Origin: a virus
Lineage: Duplodnaviria; Heunggongvirae; Uroviricota; Caudoviricetes
Virus record (IMG/VR): IMGVR_UViG_2802429219_000017
Location: 1-20,241 of that record
Length of the DNA stretch: 20,241 nt
Direction: 5' to 3' (one strand)
Part shown: piece by piece, positions 2,604 through 20,241 of the stretch
Layout: each line of letters starts with the position of its first letter
How positions within the stretch are numbered: position 1 is the stretch's first letter
Program-made: the position numbers and the translations under genes
The notes under the pieces: generated by a model
The model's input: the letters and a program-made list of their open reading frames with translations, nothing else
Databases searched by the model: none
What the model was told of the DNA's origin: nothing

Positions 2604-3692
2604 TCAGGAGCCGATATATTCTGGTTTCATATCTGTCAGTGTCGTTTTATACGCCTCATATAATTCACCCAGATGTGGCCGGGCAGCATTCAGCGTATTT
2701 TCCAGAGCAGTAAATTTTTGTTCTGCATCTGGATCACCGGATGAAGGAAGGTCATTTATCATCTTCTCGATACTGGCAATAGCATTGAGACGGTGATGAC
2801 GCCGAACCACTTTTCCTTTAAGCTCGGCAAAGAATTCGCCGATCTGGTTTTTCTGATCCTCTATCTCTTGGCGTAATGCAGTGGTTTCCTCAGTCGTGGC
2901 CGCGCTTTCGACACGCTGCCGGAATTCATCAATCCACGCTTCGTCAATACGCTGTTCGATGGTTTCTGTTCGCTGCTCGCTTACCTCGCTATAATTCTGT
3001 ACCGGCACAGGATTGATGATTTTTTCCTGTGGCTCTTCCAGTTCGTCCGGGGTATACACGCCCAGGATGACGTCAGGACAATAAAGGCGAGCCCAGTATT
3101 TCAACGCCAGATAGGCGAGCTGTTGTTTCGGGTTTGAGGTCCATAAAGGAGAATTACGCGTAATCACGCTGGAAAGAAACACCGGTTCTCCCCAGGTAAT
3201 CTCACTTTCACCGCGAAGAACTGCACCAACTCGAACTGAGAGACCATACTCATCTTCACTGGTCCAACATGGGATCGTTTCTTTTTTCTCATAGATTCCG
3301 CCTCCTTTGGCCGTTTTCTTAACGGTCTCCACTCGGGTGCGAGAGCATTTCTCCCAGTCTCCCTCGTACTTGTAATGGAAGCGGCCTACAATTGCACTTG
3401 AGCTAGAGATCACAGCGTTAACCAGTTGTGCTTCATAACCCAGAACTCCGTTTACCAGGTGTGTTTTCTGAGCCACAGCGTAGGGGTTCATGCCCCATTG
3501 CATGGCTTGCATGATGATTGCCATGCAGTCGGCAGGCTTTCCGCGAAGGTGATCGGGAACTGTGACGGTGGCCTGTGACATCAACCCGGCTACTTCCTGA
3601 AGTTGCGTCAACGCCTGAACGTTAAAAATAGTGTTACTGGCAGAAATGGTATTTGGTGTCTGCTCTGTCGTGATGATATTGGTATTTTGCAT
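2604..3692 (-). CDS. Single-strand annealing recombinase in the RecT position (divergent from K-12 RecT)
   Basis: Sits immediately downstream of recE with overlapping stop/start. GGAGAA SD favours the ATG at 3692 (MQNTNIIT...); the ORF is open to 3707. The RecT-family call rests on position and general resemblance only. Confidence 0.65.
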   Translation of the reverse strand: MQNTNIITTEQTPNTISASNTIFNVQALTQLQEVAGLMSQATVTVPDHLRGKPADCMAIIMQAMQWGMNPYAVAQKTHLVNGVLGYEAQLVNAVISSSSAIVGRFHYKYEGDWEKCSRTRVETVKKTAKGGGIYEKKETIPCWTSEDEYGLSVRVGAVLRGESEITWGEPVFLSSVITRNSPLWTSNPKQQLAYLALKYWARLYCPDVILGVYTPDELEEPQEKIINPVPVQNYSEVSEQRTETIEQRIDEAWIDEFRQRVESAATTEETTALRQEIEDQKNQIGEFFAELKGKVVRRHHRLNAIASIEKMINDLPSSGDPDAEQKFTALENTLNAARPHLGELYEAYKTTLTDMKPEYIGS

Positions 3693-3706
3693 GGTCAGGT
3701 TCTCCA

Positions 3707-6700
3707 TTAAGCCAGATGCAGTGCTTCAAGACGACGAAGATCAAAGTCGTTTAATTCGTCGGTATAACTTTCGGTTATCGGTGCTGGCCAATTGTTTGTC
3801 TCCAGGGCTTCGTTTATCTGGCGTAGCGTCCGGCGATATTCCTGTCGACCAAGTTCCAGGAGTTCCTGCGAGGCTTCCACGACAGCCACCCAGTGATAGC
3901 CAGCATCTTTGTTGACGAAGATCCAGAAAAATTTGTCCAGGTTTGCCACATCGCAATACATTGCGGCGCTGAGGTGATAATCACGCTCAATAATTTCACG
4001 GTGCAGGCGATCTTTAAGTCGTTCCTGCCGCACATAACCGAGGCTGACTGACTTCACGTCAGCGCAAATGCTTTCGTATGGCAGCCGGATTTCGATATCA
4101 GGACGGACCCTGATTTCCAGCCCGGTTTCTTCATCAAACCCGAAATAGCTGATTTCAGATTTGCGATCCGGGTGGTTGAGTAGCCTTGCTGCATCGGTAT
4201 TGTTTTGCAGTGCCGCGTGAATATTTTTTGCCTGTTCATACATATCCGGACTGATAAACGTTTTCCCGGCGTTTTCTTCTTGCTGGCGTTTTTGCCAGTC
4301 CTCCAGTGTCACCAGTTCCGGGCGAATTTTCCGTGCGATTTCGGTTAATTGCTCTTTTGTGCCACTGATGTTGTAAGGCAAAGATTTAGCACGTTCTTTT
4401 TTTGCCAGTTCTGGGTCTACAGTTTCAATTTGATCCAGAAGCTGCTCCCGTGCTCCACTGGTTTTCAACAGAGGAGGGAGGCTTGCGTTGTATTCTTTAA
4501 TACAGGCTTTCATTGCTGATGCTGTATGTTTTTCCCCCTCAGGAATACGCCGAAATTCCACCGGAAGCGAACCGTAAAGGATGCCTGTTTCTTCGGCCCC
4601 AGCACTTACAGACAGTGGCTGTATAAGAGTGCTGTTGTAGCTTTCGATCCACTCTTTCATCTGCTCTGGTGTCATCAGTGCTGGCAGACTGGCATTGTGT
4701 TTTTTAATGATGGCGATCAGTTCGTTAGAAGTAGTAACCACATATTCAGGAACCGGTACCGGAATGGCATATTCATCAGCGAATTTATCCGTTTCCAGAA
4801 CATAGCTGTGAATGATCCGCCCACGCAGCAGTGCATCACTTTCCTCGTTCGGAATAGTTCCGGCAATGTGCCGCCCGTGGTAATACATCAGGCTGATACG
4901 GGCATCCTTCAGCATCGTGCTGCTTATTCCGTTGGCGGAGTGATAAACCTCGTTCGGGAGGTTTTCATAGCGGCCTGGCTCGAAATATGACGGCCACATG
5001 ATTTCAGTTGCTACAGGAGCTGACGCTTCACCAGTTTCATCACTGCAATCACGATGCGGATCGCTGCCAGCATTCTCATTGTGCGGATGTTCAGCGCCTT
5101 CCATTTCCACCGGATCTTTTTCCTTAGCTTCAACCTGATTCTCTTCATCGAATGTTTCCTGGTATGTTGCGTCGCCCATTACCGCACCACAGTCAGGGCA
5201 GTTATCCCCGTCAGTCTGACCGCAGGCGGCGCAGACTTTTTCCGGTTCCTGTTGCGCTTCTGGTTCATTTTGTCGCGCATTTTGGCCGTTTTGTTCCGAT
5301 TTTCGGTCGTTCTGTTCCGTTTTTGGCTGATGCTGGTACACAGAATCGCGGGTCTGGATCCCCTTAACCCATTTCGGATCATTCGGGTCGCTAATCCCTT
5401 CAACAAATTCTCCGCGATAGGCAGCCAGTAATTTGTCTGCATCGACAGGATTTTTGGGCGGAATGTTTTTCCGGGCTTCATGGAGTTCTGCCCGCAGTTC
5501 TTGATATTTCGCATCAACAGAATTTACCTGTGACTGAGCATCCAGCGGCTGCGTGTCCTGATGATGTTCAGTTGCGTCCGGTTCCATTGTTTCAGCCTCT
5601 CCCTGTTCATCTGCCGTTGTTCCAGATGGTTGCGGTTTTTCTTCATCATCCTGTTTTCCTTCTTCTGTTACACGCTGCGGCATCGGGGCAGAGGAACGAC
5701 CGCAGGCAATATCCACGATTTCCGGATCAGGGTTGGCATGATCAGTTTCAGTCAGTACTTTGTTCAGATATTCAGTGACGTGCGCGGGGGTGACCTCGAT
5801 CCCAATTGGTGCTTCTTTCACGGACGCAACCACGATGGCGCGGGAATAATCCAGCCCGCCAGGCATGGTGATGAATTTGTCGCGGAAAACAGAAAAGGGC
5901 GGTTTATTTTCAGCGATAATTTCCTCAATGCGTTTAGCGTGTGCCGGATGAAGGTTATAAATGTCCACGTCCATTGAACGGGCCAGTACGCCAGTGGCTA
6001 CGTCGCGCGCCAGCGACGTCAGATCGTGGACGAAACCTTCGCCGCGATCGGTGAGGTTCCCGCCGCCAGCATTAGCACCGGAAGCCATGCGCGTGATGCG
6101 TGAAACACGATTCCCTTTTCGCCATTCTTTTGTCAGAAGACCGCGATCAATGTGTTCGGTATCCAGCCAGGCTGAAATGAAATTCTTAAATTCATAGGGC
6201 TGATGTTTTTTCGTGATAGAGAAAACCCCCTTAATTGCATCAGTCAGGCGGAGCAGGGCGGCATTATCCAGAGTTGTCGGTTCTGCCATGCCGCGTATGG
6301 CCAACAGCAGATTCTGGACATAGCTGTTTTCCTGATCCATCTCAAGAGCAGTAATGTGTTCGCGTTGTTCTCGGGTGGCATGATGCAGGTATTTCCGATC
6401 CCCGGCCGCATAGGTAAAAATGTGCAGAAGACGCTGTGTGAACCGCAAAGTGGCTACAGAGACTTCGCAATCCTGGCAATCCTCGTGGGCGTCTGCCTGC
6501 GTGTTTTCTTCCTGGCCTCCCGCCAGTTCTTTGGTTTCTTGAGCATTATCCTGGTGGTGAACGTCGTCTGGCGCTGCTCCCGGTTTTAGTTCCCAGGTCA
6601 TGGAGTCTTTGCTGAGTTGATAGCGTTCACTCCAGGTAAAATCGATCTCACCTTCAGGGGGCAGGTCATTAACGACAGGAAAATTCGTGGCAACAGCTTT

Positions 6701-6853
6701 AAAATAGCTGCTCAGTTTTTTACCTGACTTAACGATCAGGTAGTCCAGAGTGGCACAGGTCGATTCAAAATCGTCGCTTGCCCACAGGACGACGTCAGGT
6801 TCACCGGATGATTTTTTCGCTTTCCGTAACAGGAAGAGTGGTTTTGTGCTCAT
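3707..6853 (-). CDS. recE: Exodeoxyribonuclease VIII (RecE-like), 1048 aa, with a divergent C-terminal PD-(D/E)XK nuclease domain
   Basis: N-terminal ~590 aa closely match my memory of Rac RecE, including the CxxC...CPDC zinc motif. The C-terminal region has a RecE/YqaJ-like YH..GIS motif and a PD...(D/E)xK core (RPDIEI...ADVKS) but carries a large insertion with three related repeats. Confidence 0.85.
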
Positions 6854-15378: not shown

Positions 15379-15588
15379 AAACGATTTGCGGGAAAAGGAT
15401 AGTTAAGTAGAATTGCTGCGGGTGCTTGAGGCTATCTGTCTCAGGCATGAACACCAAAGGCAGATAGAGAAAAGCCCCAGTTAACATTACGCGTCCTGCA
15501 AGACGCTTAACATTAATCTGAGGCCAATTTCATGCTAGACACATGTAGGTTAGCCTCTTACGCGCCGAAAGGCAAGGAGAAGCAGGCT

Positions 15589-15744
15589 ATGAAGCAGCAA
15601 AAGGCGATGTTAATCGCCCTGATCGTCATCTGTTTAACCGTCATAGTGACGGCACTGGTAACGAGGAAAGACCTCTGCGAGGTACGAATCCGAACCGGGC
15701 AGACGGAGGTCGCTGTCTTCACAGCTTACGAACCTGAGGAGTAA
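15589..15744 (+). CDS. hok: Hok/Gef-family type I toxin (HokD/RelF-like, 51 aa)
   Basis: MKQQKAMLIALIVICLTVIVTALVTRKDLCEVRIRTGQTEVAVFTAYEPEE matches my memory of the Hok family. AAGGAGAAG SD. An in-frame upstream ATG at 15532 gives a mok-like leader. Confidence 0.85.
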   Translation: MKQQKAMLIALIVICLTVIVTALVTRKDLCEVRIRTGQTEVAVFTAYEPEE

Positions 15745-16888: not shown

Positions 16889-17178
16889 TGGTGGATTTAC
16901 GTAAAGCGGCGCGGGGGCAGATGTGCACCGTCAGAATTCCTGGCTACTGCAATCACGATCCGGAAACGTCTGTGCTGGCGCATTACAGGCTGGCGGGGAC
17001 GTGCGGAACAGCGACAAAACCACACGATATGCAGGCGGCGATTGCCTGTAACTCATGCCACGATTTAATCGACGGGAGAGTAAAAACCAGCGATTACACC
17101 AAAGAAGAATTGCGCCTGATGCATGCAGAAGGTGTTTTTCGCACACAAGAAATCTGGAGAAAGGAGGGATATTTATGA
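16888..17178 (+). CDS. YbcO-like DUF1364 protein (putative nuclease, 96 aa)
   Basis: MVDLRKAARGQMCTVRIPGYCNHDPETSVLAHYRLAGTCGTATKPHDMQAAIACNSCHDLIDGR... resembles DLP12 YbcO, including the conserved Cys/His pattern. Confidence 0.7.
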   Translation: MVDLRKAARGQMCTVRIPGYCNHDPETSVLAHYRLAGTCGTATKPHDMQAAIACNSCHDLIDGRVKTSDYTKEELRLMHAEGVFRTQEIWRKEGYL

Positions 17179-17723
17179 TTTACCCAACGAATACAGGAAA
17201 AAGCGGAGAACACCTTCGTCTCACCACGCTGGAAAGTGTCTGGATTCAGGGAAAACTACGTATGTGGGGGCGCTGGTCGTATATTGGCGGCGGCAGGTCA
17301 GGGAATATGTTTAACCAGTTGCTGGCATCCCAAAAAATGACAAAAACAGCCATCAATGAAGCCCTGCGCAGATTGAAAAAAGCGGGAATTGATAAACCAG
17401 AGTTGGAAGCATTTTTGCGAGAGATGATCAATGGTAAGCAAAAGAGCTGGCTGGCGCATTGTACTGATGCAGAGGCGTTATGTATTGATCGGGTTATAAG
17501 TGAGGTGCTGGCAGAACATCCGGGGTTGATTAGCATCCTCCGACAACGGTATGAGGGGCGGGGGATGAGTAAGCTAAAAATGGCAGAGGAGATAAATAAA
17601 ACGCACCCAGAATGGTCGCTAATTACTTGCCGGAGAAGAGTAGAACACTGGTTGACTGTGGCTGAATTCATGTTGTACCTCCCGATGAAAAATTCGTTTG
17701 GTGAAATGACAGATGGTTGGTGA
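17175..17723 (+). CDS. Putative late-gene antiterminator (Q-like, by position), 182 aa
   Basis: AAGGAGGG SD; ATGA overlap with the ybcO-like stop. Last gene before an AT-rich promoter-like region. Family not recognised with confidence. Confidence 0.5.
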   Translation: MIYPTNTGKSGEHLRLTTLESVWIQGKLRMWGRWSYIGGGRSGNMFNQLLASQKMTKTAINEALRRLKKAGIDKPELEAFLREMINGKQKSWLAHCTDAEALCIDRVISEVLAEHPGLISILRQRYEGRGMSKLKMAEEINKTHPEWSLITCRRRVEHWLTVAEFMLYLPMKNSFGEMTDGW

Positions 17724-17739
17724 AAACGAGTGAGACATA

Positions 17740-17766
17740 TTGAAGTGTGCTAAAATTATGTATAAT
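17740..17766 (+). promoter_or_regulatory. Candidate late promoter (TTGAAG ... TATAAT)
   Basis: TTGAAG (17740-17745) and a perfect TATAAT (17761-17766) with a short 15-nt spacer, in an AT-rich gap. Other -10-like hexamers lie nearby. Confidence 0.4.
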
Positions 17767-17851
17767 TTCAGTGATTTTCCAGAAGGATAGCTTAAAATTT
17801 GTTAGTACTTGGAATAATTTTTTCACATAGTATGTATGTTAAGGAGGGTAA

Positions 17852-18160
17852 ATGGTAACAAAATCAATGCATATTATTGAGATTGTTAAACTTTTCTTTC
17901 AACTTGTTAGAGATGACGAAAAAAAGTATGAGCCAGAAGTGTACGTACATACTATGCCGAAAAACGGTTTAGGCAGCATCAAGATTCATGGTCGTGGGGG
18001 ATTGGAGGTTTCTTCCTCTGAGATAAAAAAATCGCCGGAGTTTAAGGCAATGGTGGGCTATGCAAAGGAAAGAGTGAAACATGATTCATCTTTGAACGAC
18101 TTACCAAACGGGTATGAGCAACATCTGCCACACACGAAGTTTGAGGCAGAACACCGATGA
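17852..18160 (+). CDS. Hypothetical soluble protein (102 aa), first gene of the AT-rich cassette
   Basis: AAGGAGGG SD. AT-rich coding sequence. Stop overlaps the next start (ATGA). Confidence 0.6.
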   Translation: MVTKSMHIIEIVKLFFQLVRDDEKKYEPEVYVHTMPKNGLGSIKIHGRGGLEVSSSEIKKSPEFKAMVGYAKERVKHDSSLNDLPNGYEQHLPHTKFEAEHR

Positions 18161-18945
18161 TTGCTGTTTTGCTTGTGCCTCTTCTGATTAGCGGATTTAT
18201 CCTTTTGACCAAACATCCTTATCATTACTACAGGTTACACCGTTACTCTGGCCAGTTGCTTTACATGAAAGCGGCTGGCTATGGGTTTTATTGTGTCCTG
18301 ATAGCAGTAGGGAGTGCTGTCATCACTAAAGCTGTTTTTGCCGATATCCATCCGGTTATGGCGATCGCAGAGTGGGCTGATTTTACCGAGAGTGAGTCGC
18401 AAAATCGACTATGGGCTTGGTTCATTATTATATCTGTAACTTCGATTTCAATCGGCTATGTTTGGGCTTATTTAGCTAAAACTGTATATACAATTAAATT
18501 TCTCAAGGCGCTAATGGCAGAAAACGAAGGGCGTCAATCAATTGTACCGAGAGAGTTAATGAAGCATCTAAAGCTGTCAGTTATGGCTCCCTTAATGCAT
18601 GAAACCCCTATGAATTCATTGTTGTTTAACTCACTGCTTCATAAACGACATATTTTAATAACAATGGATTGTGGAAAAGTTTATGTTGGGGTGGTTTCTC
18701 GCATTACGGAACCGAACGAGACAGAGGCACCTACACAAGAAATCGCATTGACCCCGGTTATGTCTGGATATCGTAACAAGGACACTCGCAGGATATGTTT
18801 TATCAACGATTATTCTGCTCTGTCTGATGTCGATACCAATATTAACATTCCGCGCGAGAACATCACTCATGCATCGTGGTTTAATGAAGAGGTTCATAAA
18901 TCAGTAGACAATACATTCATTGGTCCGCCTGAGCCAGAGAGGTAG
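18157..18945 (+). CDS. Hypothetical membrane protein (262 aa): three N-terminal TM helices plus C-terminal soluble domain
   Basis: Translationally coupled to the preceding gene. Hydrophobic segments around residues 3-18, 42-57 and 85-107. Confidence 0.65.
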   Translation: MIAVLLVPLLISGFILLTKHPYHYYRLHRYSGQLLYMKAAGYGFYCVLIAVGSAVITKAVFADIHPVMAIAEWADFTESESQNRLWAWFIIISVTSISIGYVWAYLAKTVYTIKFLKALMAENEGRQSIVPRELMKHLKLSVMAPLMHETPMNSLLFNSLLHKRHILITMDCGKVYVGVVSRITEPNETEAPTQEIALTPVMSGYRNKDTRRICFINDYSALSDVDTNINIPRENITHASWFNEEVHKSVDNTFIGPPEPER

Positions 18946-19060
18946 TTGTTGGAGTGGCAGTATAAAACCATTGCAAAATGAGCAACAAACTGCTTTAATT
19001 CCGGTACGCTTCGCAAAGCTGTATCGCGAGGCGAACCAAGCGCAATTGAACTTTAATAGA

Positions 19061-19088
19061 ACCCGCCATCGAGCGGGTTTTGTTGTTT
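19061..19088 (+). terminator. Rho-independent terminator after the two-gene unit
   Basis: ACCCGC-CATCGA-GCGGGT followed by TTTGTTGTTT; same stem sequence as the hok terminator. Confidence 0.65.
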
Positions 19089-19164
19089 CTGGTGAACTTG
19101 GTGTTTCATCGTCAGGCGTTCAGGTAAAATTGAGCGTATTACAGATTACGTGGTTGGTGAAGGA

Positions 19165-19734
19165 ATGAAAAATCTACCCGGCGACTATTTTCTTGATGCG
19201 GATGATGACATTCTTGATTTTCTTGAAAAACAGGGAGAAGAGTGCATTCGGGAAATCCATTGCTCAAACAGCATCAACAAGGAAAATGGCTATAAATTAT
19301 TAAGCATTCTGATAGTTGGCATCGGTTCATCATTTTTACTATTAACGCAAAAAACTCATCTGGATTTTTTGGGCGCTGGACTGGCTGTTTTTGTCTTTTA
19401 CTGGTCCATTTGTGCTGTGTACCTTGTTGTTAATGTGCTGAAAGTGCATAAGCGTGCCATTATTCATGCGTCGCCAGATATTCTGTACACTCCGGCGATT
19501 AAGGGCATTACTGCGATGGATTACGCCAGGTTTAAAGAGCGAGGTTTTTCGGGGAAAGACAGCCGTTTGTCCATATTGAGAAGGTACAGATTGATGGCTT
19601 TGTGCAGAACTGCAAACGAATTATTGCAGGAAAATAAAAGACTGAGAGAAGGACTCGAGAAGGCAAGGATATCAGCTATCCTTGCCCCCGTTTATTCATT
19701 AATGGTTTCTGTTGTTATTTACTTTTTCTTCTGA
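19165..19734 (+). CDS. Hypothetical membrane protein (189 aa): two central TM helices and a hydrophobic C-terminal tail
   Basis: ATG at 19165; the track ORF starts with GTG at 19150. AT-rich. Acidic soluble N-terminus. No recognisable family. Confidence 0.55.
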   Translation: MKNLPGDYFLDADDDILDFLEKQGEECIREIHCSNSINKENGYKLLSILIVGIGSSFLLLTQKTHLDFLGAGLAVFVFYWSICAVYLVVNVLKVHKRAIIHASPDILYTPAIKGITAMDYARFKERGFSGKDSRLSILRRYRLMALCRTANELLQENKRLREGLEKARISAILAPVYSLMVSVVIYFFF

Positions 19735-19867
19735 TACCTCCCCAGGAATCACCAACGACCAATCTCTCTACGGAAAAAGGATCCTTCTTTGGTTCCTCTG
19801 TTGATTTGGGCTTTGGAGCTGACTTGGATTTGTCATTTTCATCTAATGGTTTGTTATTCTGACCCAT
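19715..19867 (-). CDS. Candidate 50-aa lysine-rich peptide, convergent with and overlapping the preceding gene
   Basis: Hand-translated: MGQNNKPLDENDKSKSAPKPKSTEEPKKDPFSVERLVVGDSWGGIRRKSK. GAGGT SD ~5 nt upstream. Overlaps the last 20 nt of 19165-19734. Confidence 0.3.
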   Translation of the reverse strand: MGQNNKPLDENDKSKSAPKPKSTEEPKKDPFSVERLVVGDSWGGIRRKSK

Positions 19868-19983
19868 TTCTTACCTCATTTGAGACATTGTTACTTTTGG
19901 CGATTTAACAATATCAAAAATCCGGGTATGTGGTGAATACAGCACTATGAATACGAGAGCAATTACCCACGCACTTTAATCTG

Positions 19984-20007
19984 AGGCTCGCTACGGCGGG
20001 CCTTTTT
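19984..20007 (+). terminator. Rho-independent terminator (8-bp stem AGGCTCGC/GCGGGCCT, UACG loop, T-run)
   Basis: Stem 19984-19991 pairs with 19996-20003 (one G-U pair), tetraloop TACG, then TTTT. Confidence 0.5.
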
Positions 20008-20145: not shown

Positions 20146-20241
20146 ATGTTTGGTATTTTCAAAAAGAAAACCCGCAAGGCCATTACTGAAGTAAAGAAAA
20201 TGGAGAACCGCGATGCAGTGGAGGCGACCGTCTGGGGCGCG
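20146..20241 (+). CDS. Partial CDS (N-terminal 32 codons), truncated by the window end
   Basis: AAGGAAAAG SD before the ATG at 20146; MFGIFKKKTRKAITEVKKMENRDAVEATVWGA...; not recognised. Confidence 0.4.
   Translation, partial: MFGIFKKKTRKAITEVKKMENRDAVEATVWGA

Follow-up and report, generated by a model that had tools for sequence, protein, structure and literature searches.

Two independently exchanged gene pairs flank a probable late promoter unit in a lambdoid prophage of Escherichia

Does the AT-rich DNA behind a Q-like antiterminator gene form a single cargo cassette, or does it hold separate accessory systems with separate control? We asked this of a Caudoviricetes stretch of 20,241 nucleotides (nt) from IMG/VR (record IMGVR_UViG_2802429219_000017, positions 1 to 20,241; the whole stretch is called the window), which is a lambdoid (Rac/Gifsy-like) prophage of an Escherichia strain. 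An initial annotation had described positions 17724-19900 as one three-gene membrane-protein cassette, bracketed by terminators and lying in the moron slot where lambdoid phages carry cargo such as stx, with a plausible role in abortive infection, exclusion or toxin immunity. Comparison with related genomes showed instead two conserved gene pairs that are independent of each other and are exchanged at defined points flanking a late regulatory unit; at the centre of either pair is a protein with three transmembrane (TM) segments. Our tentative reading is that the region consists of two independent accessory (moron-type) gene pairs, here called module A (g1-g2) and module B (g3-g4), split by a probable late promoter/terminator unit.

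Two conserved gene pairs follow the Q-like gene

The region is laid out as follows, with lengths of open reading frames (ORFs) in amino acids (aa).

17175-17723, plus strand: Q-like antiterminator gene of the DUF1133 family (Pfam), 182 aa from the ATG at 17175
17724-18982, plus strand: module A, in which g1-g2 are inserted after the Q gene and ahead of the late promoter unit, delimited by comparison with related genomes
17740-17766, plus strand: weak promoter-like candidates before g1, TTGAAG-15-TATAAT and also TGcTAAAAT at 17748-17756
17852-18160, plus strand: g1, ORF for a 102-aa soluble small partner, with an AAGGAGG ribosome-binding site upstream
18157-18945, plus strand: g2, ORF for a predicted 262-aa inner-membrane protein
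18971-19085, plus strand: probable PR'-like promoter, leader and tR' terminator, about 115 bp, delimited by conservation across relatives
19094-19981, both strands: module B, the convergent g3-g4 pair, between homology breakpoints 19035/19093 and 19982/19987
19165-19734, plus strand: g3, ORF for a 189-aa membrane protein predicted (AlphaFold2, AF2) to lie N-in with its cytoplasmic helices as a three-helix bundle
19715-19867, minus strand: g4, ORF (phrog_14506) for a 50-aa hydrophilic Lys/Pro-rich protein (MGQNNKP...VVGDS...RRKSK)
19983-20004, plus strand: intrinsic terminator of the conserved flank upstream of TerB (fold -16.7 kcal/mol, z -3.9, with a T-run)

The three ORFs of the initial annotation are all present, at 17852-18160 (102 aa), 18157-18945 (262 aa) and 19150 or 19165 to 19734 (194 aa from a GTG, 189 aa from an ATG), and its translational coupling of g1 to g2 is borne out by an overlap of the two ORFs in ATGA. 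Its topology calls also agreed with ours, g1 being soluble (no TM segment), g2 having three TM segments and g3 being multi-TM (three predicted). The inventory was incomplete, however, as a fourth conserved gene, g4, had been overlooked on the minus strand at 19867-19715.

The low G+C that had been estimated by hand persisted on a proper window plot, where 17724-19900 stood at 40.7% against a window mean of 47.0% (standard deviation 3.1%, equal-sized windows) and was the lowest 2.2-kb stretch of the window. The upstream and downstream flanks have 47.6% and 55.8% G+C, and modules A (40.0%) and B (40.7%) both lie below them, as is characteristic of morons; the spacer between Q and g1 has 28.9%. 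Codon composition agreed, with third-position G+C of 40-42% versus 50-55% in the three upstream genes.

Related genomes carry the following arrangements after Q.

Strain A30: g1-g2, then tRNA-Arg/Thr/Gly where g3 would be
Strain U90: an ORF6N gene replacing g1-g2, then g3
ETEC4090 and phage 683R6: tRNA-Thr/Gly immediately
Phage 673R7: a g3 homologue immediately, then a holin

Module A is 98.9% identical to Escherichia coli A30 through 19035 and is absent from ETEC4090, 673R7 and 683R6, in which the late unit directly follows Q; homology with A30 and ETEC4090 resumes at 19982-19987. Both modules are present or absent, moron-like, between collinear flanks that are 92-99% identical. Beyond A30, g1-g2 occur without g3 in Salmonella Montevideo, phiES15, SEN5 and P2-like loci, and g3 occurs without g1-g2 in U90, 673R7, Serratia, Proteus and 80 IMG/VR loci, so that the three genes do not travel as a unit (A30 has g1-g2 followed by tRNAs, U90 an ORF6N gene followed by g3). 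As for the promoters and terminators of their own that morons may bring, terminators are present, promoter motifs before g1 occur at chance frequency, and g3 and g4 have conserved -10-like and operator-like elements.

A late promoter/terminator unit probably separates the pairs

The Q-like gene that had been placed upstream was confirmed, its protein matching Pfam DUF1133 at E=4.9e-106 and Phage_antitermQ at 29.4 bits (cut-off 26); because the latter match exceeds the Pfam cut-off, the label "putative antiterminator" is reasonable, and the homologues in A30 and phage 673R7 are annotated as DUF1133 or antitermination protein Q. The stretch of interest between g2 and g3 has these parts.

18971-18976, plus strand: TTGCAA, followed by a 17-nt spacer
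18994-18999, plus strand: TTTAAT
19005-19010, plus strand: TACGCT
19054-19085, plus strand: terminator (-17.4 kcal/mol, z -3.5, with a T-run)

Across relatives the consensus is TTGCA(A/T), 17 nt, TT(T/C)AAT and a leader of ~50 nt with TA(C/T)GCT, ending at an intrinsic terminator (~55 nt downstream). This unit is 92-93% conserved, is preceded by the Q stop codon at a distance of 10-20 nt in ETEC4090, 673R7 and 683R6, and recurs in related loci (L006 3490-3607; L005 3785-3896; L017 3001-3105). In the annotation of P22, P late lies 43 nt after gene 23, tR' lies 30-58 nt past the transcript start, and ~300 nt remain to the holin; the stretch in the window has the position of a lambdoid PR'-qut-tR' unit and a layout that matches annotated P22. 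Because position and anatomy match those of the lambdoid late unit, we read 18971-19085 as probably the PR'/tR' of the DUF1133-type Q family, and the conserved TA(C/T)GCT at the expected start region may point to Q-dependent read-through and a proximal sigma70-dependent pause.

With 18971-19085 read as PR'/tR', g1-g2 therefore would sit between Q and PR', and g3 downstream of tR'. Placement in the moron slot thus applies to g3, which occupies the classical stx/tRNA slot downstream of tR', but not to g1-g2, which lie upstream of the probable late promoter. Likewise, both terminators claimed to bracket the cassette are real, at 19054-19085 and 19983-20004, but they bracket g3 only, and the former, as part of the conserved promoter-leader-terminator unit, separates g2 from g3 and breaks up the proposed single cassette. 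What survives of the initial annotation is that the DNA behind the Q-like antiterminator is AT-rich cargo and is exchanged horizontally, though not as one unit in one slot. The gap between Q and the probable PR' is an insertion hotspot in its own right (g1-g2 here and in A30; ORF6N in U90), distinct from the stx slot.

Module A couples a small soluble protein to a membrane-tethered barrel

To delimit the families of module A, we searched outward from each protein. A word-indexed search returned 23 clusters for g2 and 3 for g1, whereas an alignment profile of g2 reached 2,461 clusters (50% identity) with a threshold of E<=1e-3, of which 937 passed E<=1e-10; almost all members are 250-300 aa long and align over their full length. 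A hidden Markov model (HMM) built from seven proteins found a g1-like ORF directly before g2 in 39 of 42 closer viral loci, the remaining three being cut by contig ends. Distant g2 branches (22-26% identity) are always preceded by an ORF of 53-84 aa with a common beta-hairpin-plus-helix core, in which a hydrophobic strand leads through a turn bearing an invariant Gly into another strand and then into an amphipathic helix. In 54 of 57 distinct loci, the g1-type stop and the g2 start are -4 to +16 nt apart.

The TM segments of g2 span residues 1-19, 39-57 and 85-103, and in its AF2 model (predicted local distance difference test, pLDDT, 78.8) the three TM helices are followed in turn by one long and two short helices, another helix and, at about residues 150-245, a C-terminal six-strand barrel. 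The most conserved stretch of the protein is the TM1-TM2 loop, HPYHYYRLHRYxGQ, and the barrel carries the family motifs KVYVG, EPNE and SGYRxKD; charge distribution puts both the loop and the barrel in the cytoplasm. The model shows the N-terminal helix and strongly bent five-stranded antiparallel sheet of the Sm/LSm/Hfq fold, and the Pfam LSM, Hfq and WYL profiles matched none of 22 + 150 g2 family members even at E<=10. One g2 homologue, P0203 (322 aa), continues after the barrel into an H-NS-type DNA-binding motif, TWSGKGRRPKW (Histone_HNS, E=1.2e-9), which agrees with a cytoplasmic, nucleic-acid-facing C-terminus of g2. As to membership of the MscS channels, we found neither an MS_channel profile match nor an MscS structural match for g2.

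The neighbours of g1-g2 in 39 non-redundant viral loci include integrases (10), P2 gpA (9) and portal genes (7). Copies stand at the P2 gpA-gpQ position (e.g., in Salmonella phage SEN5 and a P2-like contig), an interval that is the old/tin hotspot and has been described as a reservoir of defence systems. Others adjoin int/attP in Cronobacter phiES15, lie in a Tn7-like element, or lie between Q and TerB in Salmonella Montevideo, as in the window. Recurrence beside integrases and in the P2 old/tin hotspot is in keeping with a role in exclusion or abortive infection. The allele of the window is found in 1 of 5,426 complete E. coli genomes.

A separate copy was seen on an environmental gammaproteobacterial contig (L177 7795-8891; a g1-like ORF of 64 aa and a g2 of 296 aa), where it is flanked by lysyl-tRNA-synthetase-like/EF-P and GDPD/EamA genes with no mobile-element genes within 8 kb.

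Module B pairs a late-region membrane protein with a convergent small gene

Three further elements accompany g3 and g4.

19125-19130, plus strand: conserved -10-like TAAAAT (GGTAAAAT), ~33 nt before the g3 start and downstream of the terminator
19661-19687, strand unassigned: covarying hairpin in the 3' end of g3, ~25 nt past the g4 stop, a candidate g4 terminator or RNA-duplex element
19887-19918, minus strand: conserved non-coding element upstream of g4, TTGATATTGTTAAATCGCCAAAAGTAACAATG, a candidate promoter/operator

We place the g3 start at the ATG at 19165 because the family length is 189 aa: almost all members of its 141 clusters (phrog_11870) have this length, and they come from Escherichia, Salmonella, Citrobacter, Klebsiella, Serratia, Yersinia, Morganella, Proteus, Providencia and Edwardsiella. 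Its TM segments span residues 42-60, 71-89 and 171-189, and the AF2 model (pLDDT 87.9) consists of three long helices whose ends are the TM segments, leaving ~120 cytoplasmic residues; a structural search of BFVD with g3 gave no match. In 29 non-redundant loci, the genes upstream of g3 include Q proteins of PF06530 (9), PF03589 (7), DUF1133 (6) and PF06323 (2), and those downstream include holins of five families and several endolysin types. The Pfam and NCBIfam scans that detect holins in these downstream neighbours gave no holin, antiholin or spanin match for g2 or g3. Two kinds of match for g3, PycTM (a single one, E=0.016) and STING_TM (five, best E=0.23), were set aside as not significant.

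Upstream of g3, 47 distinct loci have an intrinsic terminator, whose sequence varies, and after it a GGTAAAAT-type motif, and a -10-like element (TAAAAT, TATAAT or TAAGAT) keeps a constant position in nearly all of these upstream regions. One group of g3 loci has in this place the P late/qut/tR' unit that is annotated in P22.

The partner gene g4 is convergent with g3 and overlaps its last 20 nt. A g4-like minus-strand ORF with constant geometry was found by HMM in all 80 of 80 IMG/VR g3 loci (ORF overlap 16-30 nt), and g4 equivalents stand beside g3 in Serratia, Proteus and phage 673R7. The ORF has a coding signature, with substitutions most frequent at the third codon position, then the first, then the second, and stops in the other frames. 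The family peptide reads MS(E/Q)xNKP, a Pro/Gln/Lys-rich linker, (F/L)xxxRxxVGDSA(D/E) and a basic tail. In two E. coli genomes that carry the g3-g4 allele, RefSeq/PGAP leaves g4 unannotated.

Conservation extends to the DNA on either side of g4. The element at 19887-19918 is 97% identical to phage 673R7, versus ~72% for its flanks, and includes a near-invariant 27-nt element, TGATAT(C/T)GTTAAATCGCCA(A/G)AA(G/A)TAAC, that lies ~20 nt upstream of the g4 ribosome-binding site and is kept across Escherichia, Serratia and Proteus-type loci whose g3 proteins share only 50-60% identity. The hairpin at 19661-19687 (-15.5 kcal/mol) has counterparts of 10-15 bp at the same place in almost all g3 loci. 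In a 35-sequence alignment, pairing was retained in 83.9% of cells versus 32-51% with slid partners, five pairs showed compensatory changes (e.g., G-C 21 / A-U 12; A-U 15 / G-C 15), and the covariation score was reached by none of 500 shuffles.

Family and literature searches

The initial annotation recognised none of the three proteins, and our family and profile searches likewise found no resemblance of g1, g2 or g3 to lysis, structural or any other annotated proteins; the exact proteins are present in public Escherichia assemblies, labelled "hypothetical protein". Scans of g1-g3 against Pfam, NCBIfam and PADLOC found no family. The PADLOC check that had been proposed gave no significant defence-system match for the three proteins: in PADLOC-DB v2.0.0, g1 and g3 had no match and g2 matched only Cas6 at E=0.026. 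PADLOC scans of 150 g2 relatives gave only two stray matches (E>0.002), and Pfam and PADLOC together showed nothing beyond single chance matches among the 150 sampled members. Relaxed Pfam scans (E<=10) run member by member over 120 g3, 22+150 g2 and 7 g1 relatives yielded scattered chance matches only, and PDB sequence-profile searches with g1, g2 and g3 gave no credible match. Literature searches on the accessions, the PHROG identifiers or a late-promoter cargo hotspot found nothing, nor did they find a protein with three TM segments and an Sm-like barrel described with an anti-phage role; the DefensePredictor supplements contain none of the accessions.

Likeness to known systems

Seen against the Q-PR'-tR'-lysis region of Stx phages, P22 and lambda, the locus resembles that of lambdoid morons in carrying cargo between the antiterminator and the lysis genes, in a G+C below that of the flanks and in the replacement of the cargo by tRNAs in close relatives; it further shares with the late region of P22 a short, probably constitutive late leader ending at tR'. 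It departs from such morons in that module A lies upstream of the probable late promoter rather than in the stx slot, that module B has a convergent partner gene and conserved regulatory elements of its own, and that neither module encodes a known virulence or fitness factor.

With the prophage exclusion and abortive-infection systems lambda RexA/RexB, P2 old/tin and P22/lambda SieB, the shared features are a prophage-borne, dispensable and patchy distribution and the combination of a membrane protein with a soluble partner, and distant g1-g2 pairs occupy the old/tin locus itself; no sequence or profile similarity to the defence or exclusion families of PADLOC or Pfam accompanies this likeness. 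Compared with Sm/LSm/Hfq and WYL barrels (Hfq; DriD, BrxR, CapW), g2 differs in that its barrel is tethered to the membrane by three TM segments and has its own motifs.

Some type I toxin-antitoxin loci have convergent transcripts that overlap at their 3' ends, as in Bacillus subtilis txpA/RatA and bsrG/SR4. Read from its genes, g3-g4 is alike in being a prophage-borne membrane gene that faces a convergent partner, with a structured element at the overlap. The convergent geometry of the type I 3'-overlap loci is present; the small toxin and non-coding antitoxin are not, in that g3 has 189 aa with ~120 cytoplasmic residues versus a hydrophobic peptide of <60 aa, and g4 is a conserved coding peptide versus a non-coding antitoxin RNA. 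We treat all of these resemblances as functional analogies and not as family assignments, because every family that is defined by a sequence signature fails to include these proteins.

Proposed functions and their rivals

What we say of promoter activity, expression timing and any toxicity, defence or lysis phenotype of either module is inferred from the features above. For module A, given its membrane-tethered Sm/WYL-like barrel, the small protein that always accompanies it and its sites in cargo hotspots, we favour a phage-exclusion or abortive-infection pair, at somewhat less than an even chance. We read the module with the delayed-early genes because it lies upstream of PR'; it would be transcribed together with Q in the PR/N-antiterminated delayed-early transcription that ends at tR', and it may also be on in the lysogen if the AT-rich spacer holds a promoter. 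The g2 barrel, perhaps as a ring, could sense RNA, single-stranded DNA, a small ligand or another infection cue at the inner membrane face, the TM part would then affect either the membrane or the entry of DNA, and g1, as an obligate coupled cytoplasmic partner, would restrain g2 or give it specificity.

For module B, the convergent unit, the antisense overlap and the hairpin point to restraint of g3 by g4 in the lysogen, and we infer a self-regulated toxin-antitoxin-like or lysis-linked membrane module. It would stand at the head of the late operon, with g4 transcribed convergently from its own conserved promoter/operator and its transcript running ~70 nt antisense into the 3' end of g3 before ending at the covarying hairpin. 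As an antisense RNA, as a small disordered protein, or as both, g4 could silence a potentially harmful g3 in the lysogen despite leaky transcription past PR'/tR' or from the -10-like element that g3 itself has; g3 would act once Q-driven late transcription or infection overrides this control.

A further-reaching version of these proposals seems to us rather improbable. In it, g1-g2 would be the founder of a large family of membrane-anchored Sm-ring phage sensors/effectors, a defence class carried by prophages, transposons and the P2 hotspot; a cytoplasmic ring tethered by three TM segments would recognise phage nucleic acid, incoming or replicating, at the membrane and either gate a pore or stop DNA entry. 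In the same version, g3-g4 would be a hybrid of type I-like antisense control and a peptide antitoxin that guards a late-operon membrane effector across the lambdoid phages of Enterobacterales.

Several observations weigh against the functions that we favour. For module A, the promoter-like elements reported before g1 are present but occur at chance level, no more often than in shuffled sequence, in a spacer of 28.9% G+C; the P2 hotspot and att-adjacent sites carry non-defence cargo too, and one g1-g2 pair sits amid housekeeping genes with no mobile-element marker. The -10 of the PR'-like promoter lacks the canonical A at position 2. For module B, no conserved -35 accompanies the -10-like motif of g3, the minus-strand tail after the hairpin is only moderately T-rich, and part of the hairpin's conservation is protein-driven because it lies in conserved coding sequence; structural matches of g3 in the PDB are generic helical bundles only, and its constant place next to the holin, on the upstream side, would suit a part in lysis no less than one in toxicity or defence. 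Neither module has homology to a characterised defence, toxin, holin or exclusion protein.

Four other explanations bear on these points. That g1, g2 and g3 form one co-transcribed, terminator-bracketed cassette after Q, acting as a single abortive-infection, exclusion or toxin-immunity system, would suit their adjacency, common strand and shared low G+C, but a strong terminator and a conserved promoter-like unit stand between g2 and g3, each of g1-g2 and g3 is found without the other, and the constant partner of g3 is g4; we regard this as very improbable. Even harder to credit is the view that some or all of the ORFs are non-functional, with g1 and g4 in particular being chance ORFs in decaying prophage DNA. 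It could draw on the three close clusters of g1, the omission of g4 by PGAP and the label "hypothetical" on all four proteins, and it is opposed by g4, which keeps an open frame in 80/80 loci, shows substitutions typical of coding sequence and has its own PHROG family, by g1-type partners conserved across gammaproteobacteria with an invariant Gly and a conserved junction, and by confident AF2 models of g2 and g3 from deep or wide families.

The remaining two each concern a single module. A role of g3, with or without g4, in the lytic cycle instead of in defence or as a toxin-antitoxin module, either adjusting when the holin triggers or lysis occurs, as an accessory to the lysis cassette, or blocking superinfection or re-adsorption late in infection, with g4 as its lysogenic silencer, is unlikely but has real points in its favour, since g3 is a three-TM membrane protein that invariably follows tR' and precedes holins of five families on the late-operon strand; set against this, g3-g4 is dispensable and replaced by tRNAs in close relatives, has no similarity to holin, antiholin or spanin families, and has its own conserved -10-like motif as well as a convergent gene dedicated to it, neither of which would be expected for a simple late gene. 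For module A, the tight coupling of a small upstream partner to a membrane protein, the combination of three TM segments with an Sm-like barrel, the copy in a housekeeping neighbourhood and the spread over transposons and phages would also suit an addiction (toxin-antitoxin) pair or a host-physiology channel (e.g., an MscS-like ligand-gated pore) with no anti-phage role, which we judge a little less probable still.

Prophage setting

At its left end, the window contains the chromosomal SraC/RyeA-SdsR/RyeB small RNA (sRNA) locus (463-607), followed directly by a minus-strand ORF of integrase size (735-1811, 358 aa); since these sRNA genes adjoin an integrase-sized ORF, the prophage appears to be integrated at ryeA/ryeB. 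The same prophage carries two type I toxin-antitoxin loci, the RalA sRNA (RalR antitoxin; 2169-2347, 214 bits) and sok/hok (15420-15744, 117 bits, with a Hok-like ORF at 15532-15744). Near RalA, in the early-left region, two long minus-strand ORFs (1048 aa and 367 aa, 2604-6853) resemble recombination genes of the Rac recE/recT type in size and position.

Genes for DUF1367, YbcO/DUF1364 and DUF1133 lie upstream of the g1-g4 region, the last being the Q-like gene, and a TerB-family gene begins downstream at 20147; in related genomes the TerB-family gene is followed by DUF3927, two holins and an endolysin. The TerB-family and DUF3927 genes are conserved between the cargo slot and the holins in this phage group (20147-20241; L001 8188-8762). 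The window contains no tRNA genes, and an Rfam scan of 17.7-20.2 kb found no RNA family.

Significance

The outcome is two delimited candidate systems, together with a map of the late-switch region that corrects the earlier one. If our readings are true, the two modules would be compact prophage systems that had escaped annotation; neither is covered by Pfam, NCBIfam or PADLOC. The family of module A (~2,460 clusters at 50% identity) is very widespread and joins a nucleic-acid-type Sm barrel to the membrane, and module B is a convergent pair that always lies at the junction of late switch and lysis in Escherichia, Salmonella, Klebsiella, Serratia, Yersinia, Proteus and Morganella, one gene of which, g4, escapes standard annotation. 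The insertion hotspot between Q and PR' matters when one predicts if a cargo gene is already on in the lysogen or has to await induction.

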